A stretch of DNA of 64,000 nt from Rhizophagus irregularis (Eukaryota). Under the pieces are notes generated by a model that made no database searches, was not told where the DNA came from, and was given only the letters and a program-made list of their open reading frames with translations. Positions 3,522-57,055 of this stretch are shown here, one piece after another. Each line of letters starts with the position of its first letter. Positions within the stretch are counted from its first letter, which is position 1. The translations under genes were made by a program, and so were the position numbers. The stretch lies in assembly GCF_026210795.1 (NCBI RefSeq), contig NC_089433.1, forward strand, positions 3,410,001-3,474,000, given 5' to 3'.

Positions 3522-5031
3522 ATGGTTACTCAATTTTTTTCGAAATTAAGTCAAAATTATATTGAATTATTAAAAGACGATGAATATTATGATGTCACAA
3601 TTGAAGTTGGTGAAGACCCTAACGTAAAAATATTTTGTGCTCATATGAATATTTTGTGTTACCGTTCTCCATATTTACGACGAATATTAAAGTCTAACAA
3701 AAAGAACAATGATAACGTTTTAACCCATATTAAATTATCAAACACATCACCGGAAATCTTTCAAATTGTATTAGAGTAAGTTAATTATCATGTTATATAT
3801 AACTTTGAATATTCAAATTATAACTTTTATTTTTATAATTAGGTATATTTATGGAGGTATTCTTTCATTGGATGAAAAAGACACTTCAGACCTTCTTAAA
3901 GTTTTGGCTACTGCAGATAAACTTAGTCTTCAAGAGCTAGTTGATTATTTACAAGGATATTTAATTGAAAATAAGTCTGAACAGCTAGAACAATATTTTG
4001 AATTTGCTCAACAAATTAGCTCAAATTCTAATAATTTATTAAAACTTCAAGAATTTTGTACAAATTTAATGGTTCAGTCTCCCGAGAAAGTTCTTAAATC
4101 ATTAAATTTCACTTCATTTCCTGAAAAATCTTTAATTTCACTTATTAAAAGTGATGATTTACAAATGAAAGAAATTGAAATATGGGAACATGTATTAAAA
4201 TGGGGACTTGCACAAAATCCAACTCTCATTCCAGATCCTAAAACTTGGTCTGATGATGATTTTAAAACAATGAAGAATACTCTACAACATTGTTTACCCT
4301 TCGTTAGATTTTTTTGTTTATCACCAAAAGAATTTTCACAAAAAGTTCGTCCATATCAAAAACTCCTAAATCAACAACTTTATGAAGATTTATTAAACTT
4401 TTATTTAGATCCTGAAAGTGTATCATCTCATAACATTCAACTTCCTAGAAAAATTAAAATTAATGAAAACATTGAAGTTATTTGTTCACTAATCGTTAAT
4501 TCTGGTATTGTTTCAACAATTTCAAGATGGATAGATAAAATAGTTATTAATGATAATAATTTTAATGAATCATATTTACCATATAAATTTGAATTATTGT
4601 TAAGAGGAAGTCGAGATGGATTTACTCCTAAAAAATTTCATGAATTGTGTGATAATAAACCTAATACTGTTACATTCATTAAAATAAAAGGAACAGAAGA
4701 AATTATTGGTGGGTATAATCCAGTAATATGGGAAACCCCCCAAACGAGTTCTTGGGGTAAAACCGAAGATAGTTTTATTTTTTCTTTTAAAAATAAGAAT
4801 AATTTTAAAGATGCAATTTTGAGCAAAGTAATAAATTCTAATTATGCACTATTATTTGGTTCTATATCTGGTCCATATTTTGGTGGTGATATTAATATAA
4901 ATGCTTCAAATGAATTTGTAAATTATGACACCACTGAATATTATAATAGTTTTTATGAAAAAAAGATAAGAGATATTGAAGGTAAATTTATTGTAGAAGA
5001 TTACGAAGTGTTTCAAATAATAAAAAAATAA
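3522..5031 (+). CDS. BTB/POZ-BACK-TLDc domain protein (exons 3522-3775 and 3843-5031)
   Basis: BTB motif DVTIEVG..F.AH..IL..RSPY; GTAAG..AG intron restores E-YIYGG; BACK motif EIEIWEHVLKW; TLDc motifs LLLRGSRDGF, IIGGYNP, DSFIFSF, DYEVFQI. Confidence 0.9.
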
Positions 5032-12368: not shown

Positions 12369-15300
12369 TTAAATTTCATTTATATCAAACTCATATTCTT
12401 TTGTAATATATTCTAAAGAAAAAGAACCAAGTAATTAATAAACTCCTTTACATACTGATTAAAAAAAATAACTTAATACCTTTATTGTTGATTGATTCTT
12501 CAACGAGTTTATTATCTAAGATAATAATAATTATTAAATATGTTAAAATGTAGTAATTATTGTCCAAATTTATATAAAAATAATGTTTACATACTTGGTT
12601 TCGTATTAAACGTTATTGATCTGCTTGTATAAATTGCATTTGGATGAGGTTTTTCATTAAAATCTGGTCCAAGCATTTTTAATTTTATTAATTCTAATCT
12701 TATTTCTTCAGCTTGATTAAAATATTTGGCATCCATTCCCATATTTGACCACGAATTAAAAATTTCACAAACATCCGTTGCCAAAGGTCTCTTTTTAGGA
12801 TCAGGATTCCAACATTTTTTCATTAAATTAACAAAATCTTCAGGAGTGTCGTAAGTAATATTAGGTCGTTTTCCATCAATAATTTTGTAAATCAAATCAA
12901 CATCATGTTCAACATCAGCAAAAGGTTTACAACCAGTTGTTAATTCCCACATAATCATGCCCATACAATAAATATCAGATGATTTAGAAAATTTGGCGCC
13001 TTTAAATATTTCTGGTGCAATATAAGGTATAACTCCATATATACTGCTATCGTGTGGAATGTCATTTGCGGGCTGTGATAATCCTAAATCTCCAATTAAA
13101 TATTGATCTATTTTACATGAATCATTTTCAATTATTTCAACCAATATATTTCCACTATGAAAATCTCGATGTACGAAATCTTTTTCATGAATAGTTTGAA
13201 GTCTAAAATAAAAAATTGGTTATTAATAAAATTTTATTTAAATAATTTTAAAATCATTATTAATTAACGTAAAGTTATAAATACCCATCTGAAATTCGCC
13301 ACAAAATGTGCAATTTTTTCTTCCATGTAATCTCTGCAAAATTCTTTTGTAAATAATTATGTAAATCTCCTCCATTTGCATATTTCATTATAAACATAAA
13401 TTCTTTTGTTATAGGATCTTTTGCGATACCATGGCATTTAATAATATATTCAAATTTACTATCATAACATTGATAAAGTGATTTTAACTAAAATTTTATA
13501 GTTTAAGTTAGTATATTAAATGTTTTTAAAAAAAACAAATTTTGAAAATTAATTACCTCATTTAAAAAATATTTATTTGGTTCTTGAGAATTTAAAACTT
13601 TTTTTATAGCAACAACGTTTCCATTAATTAAAGCTTTATAAATAATACCAAATCCTCCTTCTGCTATTTTTTTAAAAATTTTAATTTGTGAATATGAAAC
13701 CCATTTTATTTTCGGTTTTGTAGAATGATAATCAAACTCATTTTGAGAACTTTGATATTTTTGTTTCAAAGATTTAAGAAATCCTTGAGAATCTTCTAGA
13801 ATTTCATTTAATTCATCACTGGTAAAAACAAGTAAATGACTTGTATAACATGCTTTTGGATGAGATTTTACAATAAGATTATTATGCTCAATTGGTGCAT
13901 TTATAAATTCCATAATATTACTTTTTAATTCTTCATTAATATCTTCAATTTTCTTATTCTCAGGGCGAAAAATCCAATTTTCAATGATATTTAAAACTTC
14001 TTTAGAAGATGGCCTTTTTAATGAATCTTGATCCCAGCATTTTTTCATTAAATTTATATAACATTGTGGAGTATTTTCAATAATTTCAGGACGTTCACCT
14101 TTACAAATACTTAAAGCAAGTTGAAGATCATGTGCTTTATCATTAAATGGTGGAATTTTAGATATAAATTCCCACATAATTATAGAAAAACTATATATAT
14201 CACTAGCTTGAGTATAAGGCTGACCTCTTAAAATTTCGGGTGCTATAAATGGTAAAACTCCATAGATATCATTTTCTTTTAAAAAAGATTTTGCAAGTTG
14301 ATATAATCCTAAATAATCACTAATAAAAATTCCATATATATCTTCATATTTGCTACATAAAATATTACCATTATGAAAGTTATAATGAATAAGATCTTTT
14401 TCATGAATATCATTAAGACCCTTAATAATTTGATATAAATGAAATAATTTTTGTTCCCAATTTTTTGTTATTTCTATTAAACAACTTTTTAAACTATCCT
14501 TATTTGTATACTCCATTATTAATGCATAATTCAAAGTATCTGGATCTTTTGTAAATCCATATATTTTAATAATTTCACATGAATTAATAATTTTCAACTA
14601 TAAAAAAAAATAATATTTAATTAATTACATAAATAAATTATAATATTAAAAAATAATAATAATATTATTATATCATACTTCATTTAAAAATTCATTTAAA
14701 CTTTCATCTGAATTTTTAAGATAATCAAAATATTTAAAAATTACTTCAACACTATTATATTTAGCTTTATATATAGAACCAAATCCTCCTTTATCAAGAT
14801 ATTCAATATTTTCAAATTTATCATAAGGAACCCATTTTAATTTATTTTTAGAAATAAATTGATCCACAATTTCACTTCCACTATTACCAAATCTTTAAAT
14901 ACAAAAATGAAATTATATTAAAAATTAAATTTAAAATCAAATTTACAATTAAAAATTTAAATATTAAATAATAATAATTATACTTACTCTAAATAAATTA
15001 TAAAATTTTAATATAATAAATAATTAATTAATTTAAATTTTAAATAAATAGTATATAATAACTTATAACTTACCAACTAAAATAAATTATCAAAATTTTT
15101 AAAAAAATTATATATTATAATAAATTAAATATAAAAAAGGATTATTATAATAAAAAAAATGCAATACTTACAGGCTAAATTATTTTAAATTATTTTAAAT
15201 GATTTTAGTTTAAATAATTTAGTTAGTTTAAATTATATGTAAATATTATATAAATATAATAGTATTACTTACGATCTAAAATATTTGAATAATTTTTTAA

Positions 15301-18300
15301 ATAAAGAATTTAGTTAGTTTAAATTATATGTAAATACAATAGAATTAAATAAATAACTTTTAACTTACCAACTAAAAGAAAAAAAGAAATTAAAAACAAT
15401 TTTTTAAATAAAGAATTTAGTTAGTTTAAATTATATGTAAATACAATAGAATTAAATAAATAACTTATAACTTACTAACTAAAAGAAATTACAAAATAAT
15501 TTTTAAATAAAGAATTTAGTTAGTTTAAATTATATGTAAATATTATATAAATATAATAGAATTACTTACATTCTAAAATATTTGAATAATTTTTTAAATA
15601 AAGAATTTAGTTAGTTTAAATTATATGTAAATACAATAGAATTAAATAAATAACTTTTAACTTGCCAACTAAAAGAAATTAAAAACAATTTTTTAAATAA
15701 AGAATTTAGTTAGTTTAAATTATATGTAAATATTATTAAATATAATAGTAGAATTACTTACAATCTAGAATATTTGGATAATTTTTTAAATAAAGAAATT
15801 AGTTAGTTTAAATTATATGTAAATATTATATAAATATAATAGAATTAAATAAATAAATAACATACTCCCTATATTATTAAGTAAATAATTAAATAAAGAA
15901 TTTAGTTAGTTTAAATTATATGTATATAAATATAATAGAATTACTTACATTCTAAAATATTTGGATAATTTTTTAAATAAAGAATTTAGTTAGTTTAAAT
16001 TATATGTAAATATTATATAAATATAATAAGATTACTTACGATCTAAAATATTTGAATATTTTTTTAAATAAAGAAATTAGTTAGTTTAAATTATATGTAA
16101 ATATTATATAAATATAATAGAATTACTTACGATCTAAAATATTTAAATATTTTTTTAAATAAAGAAATTAGTTAGTTTAAATTATATGTAAATATTATAT
16201 AAATATAATAGAATTACTTACGATCTAAAATATTTAAATATTTTTTTAAATAAAGAATTTAGTTAGTTTAAATTATATGTATATAAATATAATAGAATTA
16301 CTTACGATCTAAAATATTTGGATAATTTTTTAAATAAAGAATTTAGTTAGTTTAAATTATATGTAAATACAATAGAATTAAATAAATAACTTTTAACTTG
16401 CCAACTAAAATAAATTAAAAACAATTTTTTAAATAAAGAATTTAGTTAGTTTAAATTATATGTAAATATTATTAAATATAATAGTAGAATTACTTACAAT
16501 CTAAAATATTTGGATAATTTTTTAAATAAAGAATTTAGTTAGTTTAAATTATATGTAAATATTATATAAATATAATAGAATTACTTACTATCTAAAATAT
16601 TTGGGTAATTTTTTAAATAAAAAAATTAGTTAGTTTAAATTAGTATATGTAAATATTATATAAATATAATAGAATTAAATAAATAAAAAGTAAATAATTA
16701 AATAAAGAATTTAGTTAGTTTAAATTATATGTAAATATTATATAAATATAATAGAATTAAATAAATAAATAACATACTCCCTATATTATTAAGTAAATAA
16801 TTAAATAAAGAATTTAGTTAGTTTAAATTATATGTAAATATTATATAAATATAATAGAATTAAATAAATAAATAACATACTCCCTATATTATTAAGTAAA
16901 TAATTAAATAAAGAATTTAGTTAGTAAATTATATGTAAATATTATATAAATATAATAGAATTACTTACGATCTAAAATATTTGGATAATTTTTTAAATAA
17001 AGAATTTAGTTAGTTTAAATTATATGTAAATATTATATAAATATAATAGAATTACTTACTATCTAAAATATTTGGGTAATTTTTTAAATAAAAAAATTAG
17101 TTAGTTTAAATTAGTATATGTAAATATTATATAAATATAATAGAATTAAATAAATAAAAAGTAAATAATTAAATAAAGAATTTAGTTAGTTTAAATTATA
17201 TGTAAATATTATATAAATATAATAGAATTAAATAAATAAATAACATACTCCCTATATTATTAAGTAAATAATTAAATAAAGAATTTAGTTAGTTTAAATT
17301 ATATGTATATAAATATAATAGAATTACTTACATTCTAAAACATTTGGATAATTTTTTAAATAAAGAATTTAGTTAGTTTAATTATATGTAAATATTATAT
17401 AAATATAATAGAATTACTTACGATCTAAAATATTTGAATAATTTTTTAAATAAAGAATTTAGTTAGTTTAAATTATATGTAAATATTATATAAATATAAT
17501 AGAATTACTTACGATCTAAAATATTTGGGTAATTTTTTAAATAAAAAAATTATTTAGTTTAAATTAGTATATGTAAATATTATATAAATATAATAGAATT
17601 AAATAAATAAAAAGTAAATAATTAAATAAAGAATTTAGTTAGTTTAAATTATATGTAAATATTATATAAATATAATAGAATTAAATAAATAAATAACATA
17701 CTCCCTATATTATTAAGTAAATAATTAAATAAAAAATTTAGTTAGTTTAAATTATATGTAAATATTATATAAATATAATAGAATTACTTACAATCTAAAA
17801 TATTTGGATAATTTTTTAAATAAAGAAATTAGTTAGTTTAAATTATATGTAAATATTATATAAATATAATAGAATTAAATAAATAAATAACATACTCCCT
17901 ATATTATTAAGTAAATAATTAAATAAAGAATTTAGTTAGTTTAAATTATATGTAAATATTATATAAATATAATAGAATTACTTACAATCTAAAATATTTG
18001 GATAATTTTTTAAATAAAAAAATTAGTTAGTTTAAATTACATGTAAATATTATATAAATATAATAGAATTAAATAAATAAATAACATACTCCCTATATTA
18101 TTAAGTAAATAATTAAATAAAGAATTTAGTTAGTTTAAATTATATGTAAATATTATATAAATATAATAGAATTAAATAAATAAATAACATACTCCCTATA
18201 TTATTAAGTAAATAATTTAGTTAGTTTAAATTATATGTAAATATTATATAAATATAATAGAATTACTTACAATCTAAAATATTTGGATAATTTTTTAAAT

Positions 18301-19826
18301 AAAGAAATTAGTTAGTTTAAATTATATGTAAATATTATATAAATATAATAGAATTAAATAAATAAATAACATACTCCCTATATTATTAAGTAAATAATTA
18401 AATAAAGAATTTAGTTAGTAAATTATATGTAAATATTATATAAATATAATAGAATTAAATAACATACTCCCTATATTATTAAGTAAATAATTAAATAAAG
18501 AATTTAGTTAGTTTAAATTATATGTAAATATTATATAAATATAATAAAATTAAATAAATAAATAACATACTCCCTATATTATTAAGTAAATAATTAAATA
18601 AAGAATTTAGTTAGTTTAAATTATATGTATATAAATATAATAGAATTACTTACATTCTAAAACATTTGGATAATTTTTTAAATAAAGAATTTAGTTAGTT
18701 TAATTATATGTAAATATTATATAAATACAATAGAATTAAATAAATAACATACTCCCTATATTATTAAATAAATAATTTTAATTAAAGAATTTAGTTAGTT
18801 TAAATTATATGTAAATATTATATAAATATAATAGAATTACTTACGATCTAAAATATTTGGATAATTTTTTAAATAACGAATTTAGTTAGTTTAAATTATA
18901 TGTAAATATTATATAAATATAATAGAATTACTTACGATCTAAAATATTTAAATAATTTTTTAAATAAAGAATTTAGTTAGTTTAAATTATATGTAAATAT
19001 CATACAATAGAGTTAAATAAATAACTTACAACTTACCAACTAAAAGAAATTACAAAATAATTTTTTGAATAATGAATTTAGTTAGTTTAAATTATATGTA
19101 AATATTATATAAATACAATAGAATTAAATAAATAACATACTCCCTATATTATTAAATAAATAATTTTAATTAAAGAATTTAGTTAGTTTAAATTATATGT
19201 AAATATTATATAAATATAATAGAATTACTTACGATCTAAAATATTTGAATAATTTTTTAAATAAAGAATTTAGTTAGTTTAAATTAAATGTAAATATTAT
19301 ATAAATATAATAGATTAAATAAATAACTTACACCCTGTAGCATTATTAATTAATAATAATTATAAAGTAAAGTAATTATAATCAATAATTGTATTTAAAA
19401 TTAAGTATATACAGTAACTTACAATCTAATTATTTAAATAAATATTATTAGTTTAAATTATATATAAATACTTTTAAATTAATATAAAATTAAATACTTA
19501 CTTTCTATAATATTAGTACCATAATTATTAAACAATTATATTAATAGTAAATTTGGTTATTTAAAATCTCAGGCAAAATACAATGAAAAAAAATTAGCTA
19601 TTAACTTACCAACTATAATAATAAAATAAATTATTTGGTTATATAAAATAATAGAAATAAGTAATTTAATTATCATTCCGATTATAAGATAACCTATTAC
19701 TTACGAGCTAATATAGTAAATAATTTTTAGAAATAGTTTAAAAATTTAAATTATACGCTTATAATTTACAAGCTGTTAAATAATTTTCTTACCTTTATCT
19801 TTTTCTATTTTTGAAACTAGTTTCAT
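12369..19826 (-). CDS. Tandem pseudokinase + TKL protein kinase with a microexon-encoded N-terminus. Exons: 19826-19793, 47 x 3-nt exons, 1-nt exon at 14988, 14892-14679, 14597-13557, 13487-13285, 13202-12595, 12515-12480, 12412-12369
   Basis: Canonical splice sites join the track ORFs in frame. Domain 1 has GGFG, VIFK, HYNFHNGN, SDYLG, APE. Domain 2 has GGFG, VAIK, HRDFHSGN, GDLG, APE, SDIY. The C-terminus reads EYITKEYEFDINEI*. The kinase body is high confidence; the 5' microexon model is predicted from sequence only. Confidence 0.8.
14893..19792 (-). repeat. Tandem array of ~80-110 bp intron + microexon units
   Basis: About 50 units sharing the core AAAGAATTTAGTTAGTTTAAATTATATGTAAAT; all but three contain, on the minus strand, TAG/CAG-NNN-GTAAGT/GTATGT/GCAAGT. 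Confidence 0.92.
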
Positions 19827-20777
19827 TATGTTGCAAATTTGGTTTGAAAAAAATTTTAGAGCAATTTCAATTTGTATTAGATATCTATACTCATATTATA
19901 TGCTTTTACCTTCGTCGTTACTTTGAGCCATTACTAAATAATTTTATTGGAATTCTTCCTAAAAATAGGGTAAATACAATTAAACGCCTTTATTCGAATA
20001 TATATAGTTGTTTGTGTAATATTATCTATGCAAAATGCAGATACCAATTTTCAGCCAGATATATTTAATTAGGTAACAAGAACCGTTAGAGTATCCGAAA
20101 TGTTGATGACATCACTAAATTAAAAACGCAACTTTCTTGTCGATCATTAGCTACAAAAGAGTTAAAAGTCAAAACTAATATAGTAATTAGTGCTCTTTGA
20201 AAATTTTGTTGTGAAGTAAGAAGGTGGGCATATCAAAAGTCTGAGTAATTTGTGACTTTGAAGACGGCTGAGGGTGGCGGCGTGGCACAAGAAATAAATA
20301 GTTTTTAGTTTCTGTATTTTTTTTTAGTTATTAGATTTTTTTGATTTTTTATCGATACAAGCATACAGTTTAGTCTAGCATCATATCTGATATGTATTTT
20401 GGTAGTTAGCAGTTAGGTTTAGAGTTTTGTTTTGTCTTCTAGTTTAACAAAAATTCAGTAGTTAAACGAAAAATAGAACATGTATTAGGTCATGTGACGC
20501 GGTGTTTTGTTGTAAGATGTACAGTACATTCTAGTCCTCGATGATTGAAAAGAAAAAGAGATTCTATTTATTTTTTGTGAACCATTTTTTTTTAAAAAAA
20601 AATTATAATTATCTGTACTATACTCCAGAGCGAAGAGTGGAGACTATATGTGATTTATAAATCATTTATTGTCCGGAGGACTATATATGTTTGTGAACTT
20701 TAATTGCATATTGGATCACGTGGCGAAGTCTGTTTGAAATGGATTATCAAAATCGATATATAACCTTAAGCTTATAT

Positions 20778-49840: not shown

Positions 49841-52800
49841 CAGATGATTTTCGAGATTTCGTACCAAAACGTGTCGACTAGTGTCGACTTGCAAATTGCA
49901 ATTCCATTATCATGGAATTAATCGTGATTTTAAATTAAAAGATGTATCATCATTACTGAAAGAGACGACATTTATAATAAGAGGAACTAAATTATCAAAT
50001 TATGGAGATTATCTAATATTTTTTAAAAAAAATTTAATATGCAAAAATTTCGTATTAATTTCATCAGCCATTCCGCCATAATATATTCTAATTATAGTAA
50101 AGAAAACAACTAAATTATTGTTGATAAATCCATAAATAAAGTCTTTGTTGGCGGTCTAATCAGCTACACAAATAAATTTGGTAGCGTAAAATCACGATAT
50201 TTATATTTACTGTGAAATAATTGGTTTGATACTTTTTTGATCTATCCTTCTCAGATTTACATACGTACTGTAGGTAGGATGAATTTTATTCAAAAATTTC
50301 GATGTTAGTAATCTGATGATGAATTTCTATGTAGAATCTAAAATACATACGATACATATAAGTTTATTAATAAATCGGTCATAGACGTAAATGAACATTA
50401 ATTTACATATATCAAGAAAAAAAAATCGGAATAAATGAGTCGTCACTTTATTAATCTATTTATCCACGCCATGTTATCATTGACCAAAACGGGATCACTA
50501 TTAATTTGCTGCGCCATGTAAGACGCAAAAAAAAACTATATTTATAATAACAAGCAAATATTTAACATAACGGGAAGCTAATAATTAATGATAAATCGCA
50601 AATTTAAATATATTATTTTTATTAAATAAATAAATTCTTTATTTCTTTGCAGAAATCTGTGATTTATTACTATGTGGTTAAGTAATCACCGTTAAATCAT
50701 TATCCAATACGTGTATTATGAATGTTACAGTTTTCAAAAAATTTACTACAAAAAACTACAATGAATATGATCCATAAAAAAAAATATTAATTGTTAAAAT
50801 AACTTTTAAACCCTTTCGTTCCTATATAATGAAAAATAAAATTCAATAGTTTCAAATTTGTTAGAATTTCATAATAATAATTTCAACTTCTTTTCTTTCA
50901 AAACATTAATGTTTACTATTTAATAAGATATATTTATAGTATAATGTAAGTACAGTTATAAAACATATACAATATGATAACAACAGTGAAGCCAGCTTAA
51001 TTTTTTAGCATAGTAAATAAAAAAGAATTGGCAGTGTAATTAAATTTAAATTGCTGCAAAATGATATGAACATTTTCGAAGCCTATTCATTTATTTAGAA
51101 TGTACATATACAGTCTAAAATAAACTTTTAAACTTTAAATAAACTTTAAGGAACTTACTTTTTTTTTGTTTCAAAAATAAATTGACAGAGTATATTTTGA
51201 TTATTTTTATTTAATAATTTTTTTAACAGTTTGTTTGATAATTTTTTTTTTGATAGGCTTATTTGATAATCTCTCCGACAGATCCACCCGAAATTTTGAT
51301 AGTGTATGTTTGATAATTTTTTGATCCTGTATGTCCATTTGATATTTTTGTTTGATAGAAATAGAGTCCATTTGATATTTTTTTTTTTAAAGGGTACATT
51401 TGATAATGATTTTGATAGGGTTCATTTAATAAGTCTTTAGATAAGATCTGGAATATCTGAAAGTTTGTGTGAGCAAAGAAAAAAATTCGATTAACAACGT
51501 TTTTAAAATGTGATTTTATTATTCATTGACCTATTAACTGTTAACATTCAACATTTAATAGCAAAATTTCAGTGAAAAAGTTTCCGTAATGATTTTTTAT
51601 TTGTTTAAATCTCTATTTATTGTTCATTGTCCATTGTCCCATCACAATTTTATTTTTATGAAGGGTCTGTCGTACAAAATTGAACGGACTTTTTTTTTAC
51701 CGAAAGAGAATTAGAGAAGATCAATGATAATTAAGAAATGATTGTCAATGGAAAATTTTTTTCCGGAATTTAAAATTTGACAATGATCAACAAATGATTG
51801 ACGTAAAAAATATCTATTTTTGCAGAAAACGCTCAACAAAATGATATCATTGATGAAGCGGATATTTTAATTGTTGCAACAATATAAATACAAATGCAGT
51901 TTGCAGATCTCAACAAGGTTCTTTCCTCCTGGTTTCTGAATTTTTTTTTATTTCTATAAACGTTGAAAATTTTTTAAACCATATAATGTCATATTATAGT
52001 GAATGTGTTTACAAATGTGAAAGATGCGGTAATTATGCTCCTTCCGGATGGTGCAAATCATGTCAAATAAATGATTTAGAAAAAAATTCTACAATTAGAA
52101 TGAGTGGAAACGAGCAAATTGATAATTTCATTCAAAAAGCGCAATTAGAAATTAATAATTATAATAACATAGTTGAATGGATACCATATGATCAGTTCAA
52201 TAATATTAAAGAGTTAGGAAAAGATGAACTTACTACAATATACTCAGCTATATGGAAGAATGGTCCATTACAATACGATTATAATAAATGTGAATATTCA
52301 AGACAACAGAATAATAAAGTCAATTTAAAGTCATATAACTCGAAATATTATACATATGAATTTTTAAGTCAGGTATGAATTTTTCTTTTAACTTAAACAT
52401 TATAAATATAGTAAACAAAAATTTTTTTATTTAATAGGTTTACGTTGCATATTCTACTGGTAACGTTCGTGAATTTGGACCTAATATATATGGAATATCT
52501 CAAAATCCTCATGCAGAAAGTTACATTATAGTTTTTCCAAATGGTTATCATTGTGATAAATGTGGTAAAAAATTTACAGTTGAAAAATGGTGTAGATCAT
52601 GCCAAATTAGTGATTTAGAAAAAAAATTTACAAATTGGACCAGTGGAAATGAAAAAATTGATAATTTAATTCAGGAAAGGCAATTAAGGATTAATTTTTA
52701 TACTGATTTTATAGTTGAATGGATACCATATGATCAATTTAAAAATATAGAAAAAGTTAACTTTACTGATGGAATATATTCAACTATATGGAAAGATGGT

Positions 52801-54629: not shown

Positions 54630-57055
54630 ATATAAAAAAAATTAATTTTTTTAATTAAAAACATCCAGCTTGACGTTTTTGTGATTAAAAAATCAAAAAA
54701 ATTAATTTTTTTTTAATTAAAAACGTCCAGCTTGACATTTTTGTAATTAAAAAAAATCAAAAATATTAATTTTTTAATTAAAAACGTCAGGCTTGACATT
54801 TTTGTGATTAAAAAATAAAAAAAAATCAATTTTAAAAACGTCAGGTTTAGCTTGGCATTAGTTCAGGTTGTAACATCAATATAACCTGAATGACTAATAT
54901 TATTATTTTATTAAAAAAACGTTGCAAAAACGTTTTTTCTATAAGATTGTATTAGAAAAAAACGTTTCGTAACGTTTTTTTTGATATTTTATTAAAAAAC
55001 GTTGCGAAAACGTTTTTCTATAAGGTTATATTAGAAAAAACATTTCGCAACTTTTTTTTTGAAAAACGTTGCGAAAATATTTTTTCTATAAGATTGTATT
55101 AGAAAAAAACGTTTTGCACCGTTTTTTTGATATTTTATTGAAAAATGTTGCAAAAACGTTTTTTCTATAATTTTATATTAGAAAAAACGTTTTGCAACGT
55201 TTTTCTTGATATTTTATTGAAAAACGTTGCAAAAACGTTTTTTTCTATAACACTATATTAGAAAAAAACGTTTTGCATCATTTTTTTTGATATTTCATTG
55301 AAAAACATTGCAAAAACGTTTTTTCTATAACGTTATATTAGAAAAAAAAACGTTTTGCAACGTTTTTTTTGATATTTTATTGAAAAACGTTGCAAAAACG
55401 TTTTTTCATAATGTTATATTAGAAAAACGTTGCGAAAACGTTTTTTCATAATGTTGCATTAAAAAAAACACTTCGCCAATTGATTATTAAGCAATTTGAT
55501 AATAAATAATGGGTTCATTCCTGTTTTAAATTGATTTAATAAAAAAATGTGTGAACCTGTTTGCCATTAAAAAATTTAATAATAAATAACAGGTTTGCAC
55601 AGTTTTTAATTGATTTAATAATTAAATGGTGCGAACCTGTTTTTTATTATCTAATCACTTAACAAGAAATGGGTCACGCCATTTCTTTATTAAACCATTG
55701 TGCATAGTACCCATTATTTGTTATCAAATTACTAATCAAAAATAATGGATTCTCACCATATTTTTTATCAAATTGCTAATAATTTAATATGTAATAATGT
55801 GAACTCTTAAAACTTCAAAAATTATTAAAATTAATTTTAACCCTCACAATTTAAGGGATAGTTAGTAAATAATTTATATTAGAAAAAAACGTTTTACAAC
55901 GTTTTTTTTGTCATTCTATTGAAAAACGTTGCAAAAACGTTTTTTCTATAACATCTATATTAGAAAAAAACGTTTTGCAACGTTTTTTTTGATATTTTAT
56001 TGAAAAACGTTGCAAAAACGTTTTTTCTATAACATTATATTAGAAAAAACGTTTTGCACCGTTTTTTTTTGATATTTTACTGAAAAACGTTGCGAAAACG
56101 TTTTTTCTATAATTTTATATTAGAAAAAAACGTTTTGCAACGTTTTTTTGTCATTCTATTGAAAAACGTTGCAAAAACGTTTTTTCTATAACGTTATATT
56201 AGAAAAAACGTTTTGCAACGTTTTTCTTGATATTTTATTGAAAAACGTTGCAAAAACGTTTTTTTCTATAACATTATATTAGAAAAAAACGTTTTGCAAC
56301 GTTTTTTTTGATATTTCATTGAAAAACGTTGCAAAAACGTTTTTTCTATAACGTTATATTAGAAAAAAAACGTTTTGCAACGTTTTTTTTTGATATTTTA
56401 TTGAAAAACGTTGCAAAAACGTTTTTTCTATAACGTTATATTAGAAAAAAAAACGTTTTGCAACGTTTTTTTGATATTTTATTGAAAAACGTTGCAAAAA
56501 CGTTTTTTCTATAACGTTATATTAGAAAAAAAAACGTTTTGCAACGTTTTTTTTGATATTTTATTGAAAAACGTTGCAAAAACGTTTTTTCATAATGTTA
56601 TATTAGAAAAACGTTGCGAAAACGTTTTTTCATAATGTTGCATTAAAAAAAACACTTCGCCAATTTGTTATTAAGCAATTTGATAATAAATAATGGGTTC
56701 ATTCCTGTTTTAAATTGATTTAATAAAAAAATGTGTGAACCTGTTTGCCATTAAAAAATTTAATAATAAATAACAGGTTTGCACAGTTTTTAATTGATTT
56801 AATAATTAAATGGTGCGAACCTGTTTTTTATTATCTAATCACTTAACAAGAAATGGGTCATGCCATTTCTTTATTAAACCATTGTGCATACCCATTATTT
56901 GTTATCAAATTACTAATCAAAAATAATGGATTCTCACCATATTTATTATCAAATTGCTAATAATTTAATATGTAATAATGTGAACTCTTAAAACTTCAAA
57001 GATTATTAAAATTAATTTTAACCCTCACAATTTAAGGGATAGTTAGTAAATAAAT
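54630..57055. repeat. Intronic satellite: ~62-bp repeats, then ~80-bp palindromic AAAACGTTGCAAAAACGTTTT units, plus a duplicated ~430-bp block
   Basis: Arrays at 54910-55450 and 55875-56630; block 55440-55872 repeated at 56622-57052. Confidence 0.9.

Follow-up and report, generated by a model that had tools for sequence, protein, structure and literature searches.

The window analysed here is a stretch of 64,000 nucleotides of Rhizophagus irregularis DNA (contig NC_089433.1); it is very AT-rich and contains kinase and BTB-type frames. The subject of this account is a kinase gene on its minus strand, whose parts are collected, in window positions, in Table 1. On the exons that were scanned Pfam finds kinase domains and nothing else, so no NACHT-ankyrin NLR; the gene belongs to the expanded protein kinases of Rhizophagus (PF07714 / PF00069), and the best protein relatives of its first kinase exon (87% and 86% identical) come from R. 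diaphanus and R. irregularis. In domain 1 the Asp of the HRD motif is absent and the DFG-region motif is altered, features common to several Rhizophagus homologs and to the metagenome locus L001 that is discussed below. In domain 2 the HRD motif is kept. Domain 1 is predicted to be a pseudokinase and the gene, in turn, a pseudokinase-kinase pair. Splicing of the kinase part is documented by CT..AC joints at 13487/13557, 13202/13285 and 12515/12595, which are present in all four runs of the first alignment (X1-X4), and by a joint at 14597/14679 in three of the four (X1, X2 and X4). The 79-nt intron at 12594-12516 is spliced out in RNA contigs, which means that additional short exons follow 3' of the stop in the model.

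Table 1. Parts of the kinase gene and of the microexon array that precedes it
Feature	Position	Strand	Evidence
Exon 1, predicted coding portion (22 nt from ATG 19931, ending in phase 1)	19910..19931	-	Sequence model; first residues resemble starts of annotated Rhizophagus paralogs P0070, P0077, P0025
Exon 2, predicted (24 nt; enters and leaves in phase 1)	19793..19816	-	Sequence model only
Other 37 predicted 3-nt microexons (model exons 3-39)	16040..19707	-	Splice motifs only; mostly within tandem array of ~91-nt intron-plus-codon units
Last ten 3-nt microexons (model exons 40-49)	15074..15951	-	X16 loose end, 30/30 letters: nine whole and two of three bases of the tenth, in genomic order
GT-AG intron 5' of the 1-nt exon (85 nt)	14989..15073	-	Sequence; missing from spliced contig X16
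1-nt exon (A)	14988..14988	-	TAG acceptor and GTAAGT donor, both canonical; read in contig X16 and in the X24 consensus (7 reads); L001 keeps the motif
GT-AG intron 3' of the 1-nt exon (95 nt, AAG acceptor)	14893..14987	-	Contigs X1 and X16: 0 differences to 14892, where they depart from the genome
First kinase exon (requires phase 2; carries the Gly-rich loop of domain 1)	14679..14892	-	Spliced to 14597 in X1, X2, X4; 87% identity to Rhizophagus kinase proteins
Remainder of kinase domain 1, the linker and the beginning of domain 2	13557..14597	-	Pfam PF00069 2e-30, PF07714 3.2e-28; catalytic-loop motif; RNA joints
Two exons (13487-13285, 13202-12595) finishing kinase domain 2	12595..13487	-	Pfam PF07714 5.6e-25; RNA joints
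79-nt intron near 3' end	12594-12516	-	RNA contigs

The kinase exons are preceded by 47 consecutive sites of the form YAG-NNN-G[TC]A[AT]GT, running from 19707 to 15074 and separated by introns of 75-105 nt, plus three of 186 nt. (These three look like units whose exon was lost.) In the entire window, both strands included, there are 48 such sites, just one of which lies beyond the array; simulations of the size of the array give an expectation of ~0.01. A tandem repeat with a unit of ~91 nt and 43.6 copies spans 15211-19314. The array uses 11 triplet types, has GC donors at 16404 and 15668, and carries a CTAAY motif in 43 of its 48 introns; that motif is absent from both introns adjoining the 1-nt exon. 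In the A-type units the third base of the exon is highly variable, yet this is matched at some positions within the introns and could stem from C-to-T change at CpG, so that no selection on the exon is claimed. Exons 1-39 are a prediction, the RNA letters covering exons 40-49 and the 1-nt exon; the lengths of contig sequence upstream of 14892 (177 nt and 213 nt) are, as lengths only, compatible with full inclusion of exons 3-39. A second tandem array, of ~80-nt units with inverted AAAACGTTTT-like motifs, lies at 54904-56615 within a cluster of kinase genes.

The first-pass annotation of this DNA proposed a single-nucleotide exon between the array and the kinase. Its reading of the plus-strand letters 14981-14994 is right: on the minus strand they are a TAG acceptor, the A at 14988 and a GTAAGT donor, and the flanking introns, which it put at ~85 and ~95 nt, measure 85 nt (15073-14989) and 95 nt (14987-14893). 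Scanning from 15073 to 14893 finds AG, A and GT in direct succession solely at 14988. The motif YAG-N-G[TC]A[AT]GT arises by chance in a fraction of 0.001 of 5000 local 181-nt Markov simulations, and there are three such sites in the whole window, both strands included. The phase argument was that the upstream exons deliver phase 1, the kinase exon demands phase 2 and one base bridges the two. Both candidate starts (ATG 19931 by way of the 22-nt and 24-nt exons, or an ATG just 5' of exon 2) do leave phase 1, all 47 upstream microexons are 3 nt long, and the kinase exon opens with three possible AG acceptors (14892, 14880 and 14874), each of which needs phase 2, as read from the sequence. That fit had also been taken as independent support for the whole model. 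A look-alike AG-A-GTAAGT on the plus strand at 3775, serving here as a chance control, is simply the place where the first exon of a BTB-type gene ends; motif and phase could thus mislead and are no proof by themselves. The stop-free chain of exons is likewise left uncounted as evidence, because 17.6% of 20000 shuffled exon orders are equally free of stops. (Two isolated splice-like motifs outside visible frames, for a 3-nt exon at 50267 on the minus strand and for a 1-nt exon at 51303 on the plus strand, are probably due to chance.)

What proves the one-base exon is a spliced contig. The search for runs listed 24, with no holder on record as RNA; X24, which is on record as polyA RNA-seq, was added by its species label. 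The first alignment used contigs X1-X4, from two studies, and the second X1, X4, X16 and X24. The 325-nt contig from X16 shows 0 differences from the window over 14781-14892 (112 nt identical) and continues into a loose end of 213 letters. The 30 letters of that end that are displayed agree with the inclusion model at 30/30 positions, with a model that skips the A at 14/30 and with the genomic continuation at 8/30; their longest contiguous genomic match in the window is 13 nt. They take in the single base, nine complete 3-nt exons and two letters of the next one upstream, 11 introns having been removed. The A and the nine exons before it are thus joined in genomic order in one spliced molecule, in a gene whose ordinary kinase introns are also spliced, and the phase argument and the proposed Glu codon, drawn from three exons with the A at 14988 as its middle base and standing before Phe-Gly, are both borne out. 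The clean match is that of a single contig from one run. X16 has zero depth over 14900-15205 (14911-14994 being masked as repeat).

Other transcript material points the same way. A contig from X1, which belongs to a different study from X16, has 0 differences and departs from the genome at 14892 with 177 letters upstream that are known by length only; at the same junction X4 provides a paralog piece only. About a quarter of the X24 run was used and gave 24 reads, seven of them with loose ends at 14892. The consensus of these ends matches the model in its first 16 letters and in 25 of 30 overall, with a consensus agreement of 0.72. Since 17 of the 24 reads are just 90-95% alike, seven of nine differ at 14884 and the agreement is no higher than that, most of the X24 reads represent a paralog or allele in which this junction, extra A included, is the same. 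In another paralog Glu-Phe-Gly is kept in five X24 reads. The first-pass annotation had suggested comparing joints with and without the extra A, and the A is there both in the X16 contig and in the X24 polyA reads. A skipped form lacking it is absent from the listed loose ends of the four runs, a sample of 24 raw reads plus contigs, the depth of which is too low to speak against minor skipping. (A spliced form is listed only if it has at least 3 reads, and contigs lose rare variants.) The A at 14988, then, is a single base between canonical AG and GT sites with a full-length intron on either side; it is present in the spliced transcript and unexplained by any shifted splice site. Donors at 15069 or 14946 were considered as another source of phase 2 and rejected, as they would insert letters that the X16 contig does not have.

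Assembled from ATG 19931, the model (22 nt, 24 nt, 47 triplets, the A and four kinase exons) is an open frame of 753 residues, the final few of which are wrong, RNA showing an extra intron between 12595 and 12515. Without the A the predicted frame runs into a stop after 80 residues, 5' of several introns; the A is required for the frame. The 3-nt exons are more forgiving: 45 of the 47 can be skipped singly with the frame staying stop-free, so that combinatorial skipping would be possible, while skipping exon 49 or exon 43 brings in a stop. A restart downstream of the junction is rejected for this copy of the gene, in which the first Met past the junction is residue 99. At 14868 on the minus strand (residue 9 of the first kinase exon) this copy has Val, where many homologs have a Met that predictors use as start. 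Homolog copies that have this Met might conceivably restart translation 3' of the array.

A scan of metagenomes returned three loci from 296 candidate stretches, of which only L001 is close; L002 and L003 are distant (47%). L001 lies on a metagenome contig, has 90% protein identity over the kinase exon and carries the same 1-nt motif, with a single A at the acceptor. This independent assembly agrees with the window, and the idea of a missing A or an assembly slip in the latter is rejected. As to conservation of AG-N-GT in relatives, the one close locus keeps the motif (1/1), but its flanking introns are highly similar too. In positions 1-450 of L001 the similarity stops just before the donor 5' of the 1-nt exon, and that 450 nt has no microexon array; L001 is possibly a truncated or rearranged copy. 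With its introns so alike and the array lost, L001 may keep the motif because of recent descent, and it speaks for descent rather more than for selection.

The proteins on record bear on a different point, the N-terminus of the family. Among 46 aligned homologs, 33 start at or inside the first kinase exon, seven have 1-10 residues upstream of it and six have more; in close homologs the upstream residues are mutually unrelated up to a common Phe-Gly boundary. Because homologs either start at or past that boundary or carry unrelated residues up to it, it looks as though gene predictors fail at the Phe-Gly acceptor, leaving the N-terminus of the family widely mis-annotated. A protein with the array-coded N-terminus of this gene was found neither among the 46 aligned homologs nor among 33 of the 150 listed, nor by a motif scan of all stored proteins. 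The more distant Rhizophagus paralogs P0070, P0077, P0089 and P0025 have starts like predicted exon 1. Two of these four have a repetitive acidic peptide, differing in length, and all four have Lys before Phe-Gly, which fits a shared phase-2 intron. Judged by these sequences, a variable N-terminal peptide ahead of the first kinase exon is likely to be a trait of the subfamily.

We consider it very probable that 14988 holds a spliceosomal exon of a single base, the A, whose likely role is to adapt the frame, in a fixed and constitutive way, from the codon-sized exons of the phase-1 array to a phase-2 kinase acceptor. A real exon could instead be a regulated frame switch, its skipping coupling splicing to premature stop and decay and turning the kinase off in some conditions; the first-pass annotation inclined that way, holding that inclusion or skipping would switch kinase translation on or off. 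The stop that skipping brings, after 80 residues and with several introns downstream, is what such a switch would use, both adjoining introns are without the CTAAY of most array introns, and the 1-nt exon of plant VPS55 is alternatively used, through intron retention (PMC8831610). The suggestion nevertheless goes unsupported: a skipped loose end or joint is not listed in the four runs, at low depth, the splice sites on either side of the A match the consensus, the first Met 3' of the junction comes past the Gly-rich loop and offers this copy no simple alternative product, and the stops that follow skipping of exon 49 or 43 deprive the 1-nt exon of any claim to be a unique control point. We judge regulation of this kind unlikely.

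That the gene is a decaying pseudogene, with an array that persists as a selfish or neutral tandem repeat and simply retains its splice sites, would fit a domain 1 without its catalytic Asp, 186-nt introns that resemble exon-less units, and the loss of the upstream array in L001. Against this stand a frame that stays open from the ATG across the two kinase domains, a domain-1 change shared by several homologs beside an intact domain 2, and spliced transcript contigs from two studies that are identical to the window; decay seems quite unlikely. The extra A might, finally, have come from elsewhere, that is, from a strain with a two-A acceptor, a DNA retrocopy or an error in assembly of the window. 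This draws on the library type of X16 not being on record. It has to contend with the single A that the window and L001 both have at the acceptor, with a full AG|A|GTAAGT at array-like spacing, with reads on record as polyA (X24) that carry the A, and with the zero depth of X16 over the intervening DNA, and it is highly improbable.

For the one-base exon as constitutive adaptor a simple course of splicing can be proposed. An exon of 1 nt is too small for both of its sites to be bound simultaneously, so its flanking introns would each be defined across the intron and removed one by one; sequential, intron-defined removal has been proposed for APC11 of Arabidopsis (PMC4674806). The array may have grown by tandem duplication of an intron-plus-codon unit, which would leave the N-terminal peptide free to vary in length and sequence while the last exons hold the kinase frame. 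Skipping of the A, with its predicted stop after 80 residues and a transcript that would be a substrate for decay, would on this account be an error rather than a designed isoform. A bolder proposal is possible, although we rather doubt it: that the array encodes a hidden, hypervariable N-terminal sensor peptide, one codon per exon, in a subfamily of kinases of arbuscular mycorrhizal fungi. Expansion and contraction of units might vary such a peptide between copies or nuclei, and exon skipping might vary it within cells, with the terminal 1-nt exon as the shared adaptor that locks any version to the kinase frame; it would be a separate-lineage kinase counterpart of the truffle NLR diversifier, invisible in current annotations.

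The RNA-supported part of the gene is an extreme of exon size, 11 introns (~1 kb) being removed to make 30 nt of mRNA that has the one-base exon at its end, and it makes a compact test case for sequential, intron-defined splicing. The one-base exon and the array together suggest why database models of the subfamily are cut, or acquire unrelated N-termini, at one boundary (33/46). Should the array differ between gene copies or between nuclei, the large kinase repertoire of these long-asexual symbionts would have in it a source of protein diversity that can be tested.

Taken alone, the one-base exon is a further example of a published kind; the unusually long codon-sized array is in a lineage and gene family for which a report was not found. 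Among the literature matches listed, which do not extend to subscription journals, none reports microexons in arbuscular mycorrhizal fungi or Rhizophagus, and the word 'microexon' is absent from the main text of a long-read R. irregularis annotation paper (PMC10234402). The first-pass remark that 1-nt exons are very rare has to be tempered, 13 being annotated in Coprinopsis cinerea alone (PMC12230235). A close parallel is the 1-nt exon of Fusarium CYP621A P450 genes, described as common to 20 orthologs (Nelson and Syed 2026, PMC12940212). Like the kinase exon it is fungal, confirmed by RNA reads and missed by annotation, and it too bridges a phase-1 donor and a phase-2 acceptor with one mid-codon base, splitting the codon over three exons. 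As described, however, it has exons of normal size on either side and encodes part of a conserved enzyme motif, whereas the kinase exon comes after 47 predicted 3-nt exons and has its genomic conservation seen in one other locus. The 1-nt exons of plant APC11 (PMC4674806) and VPS55 (PMC8831610) and of Coprinopsis resemble it in their canonical splice sites, in being essential to the frame and in usually going unannotated, which yields a short or wrong N-terminus; these accounts are of single microexons in plants or a basidiomycete, while the kinase exon ends a long tandem array. For the array itself the precedent is the nank (NACHT-ankyrin) genes of Tuber melanosporum, in which codon-sized microexon arrays with extensive alternative splicing are described (PMC4986451 and PMC13449251, citing Iotti et al. 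2012). In each case the genes belong to a fungal family that has expanded, and their codon-sized exons number in the tens (here 47 predicted, with nine whole and one part seen spliced). The Tuber host gene is an NLR, whereas the present array sits in a Glomeromycotina-type pseudokinase-kinase; and next to the extensive alternative splicing described for the Tuber arrays, X16, the one informative contig, includes ten of ten consecutive exons, the consensus of X24, whose reads are mostly from another copy, departing after 16 letters.
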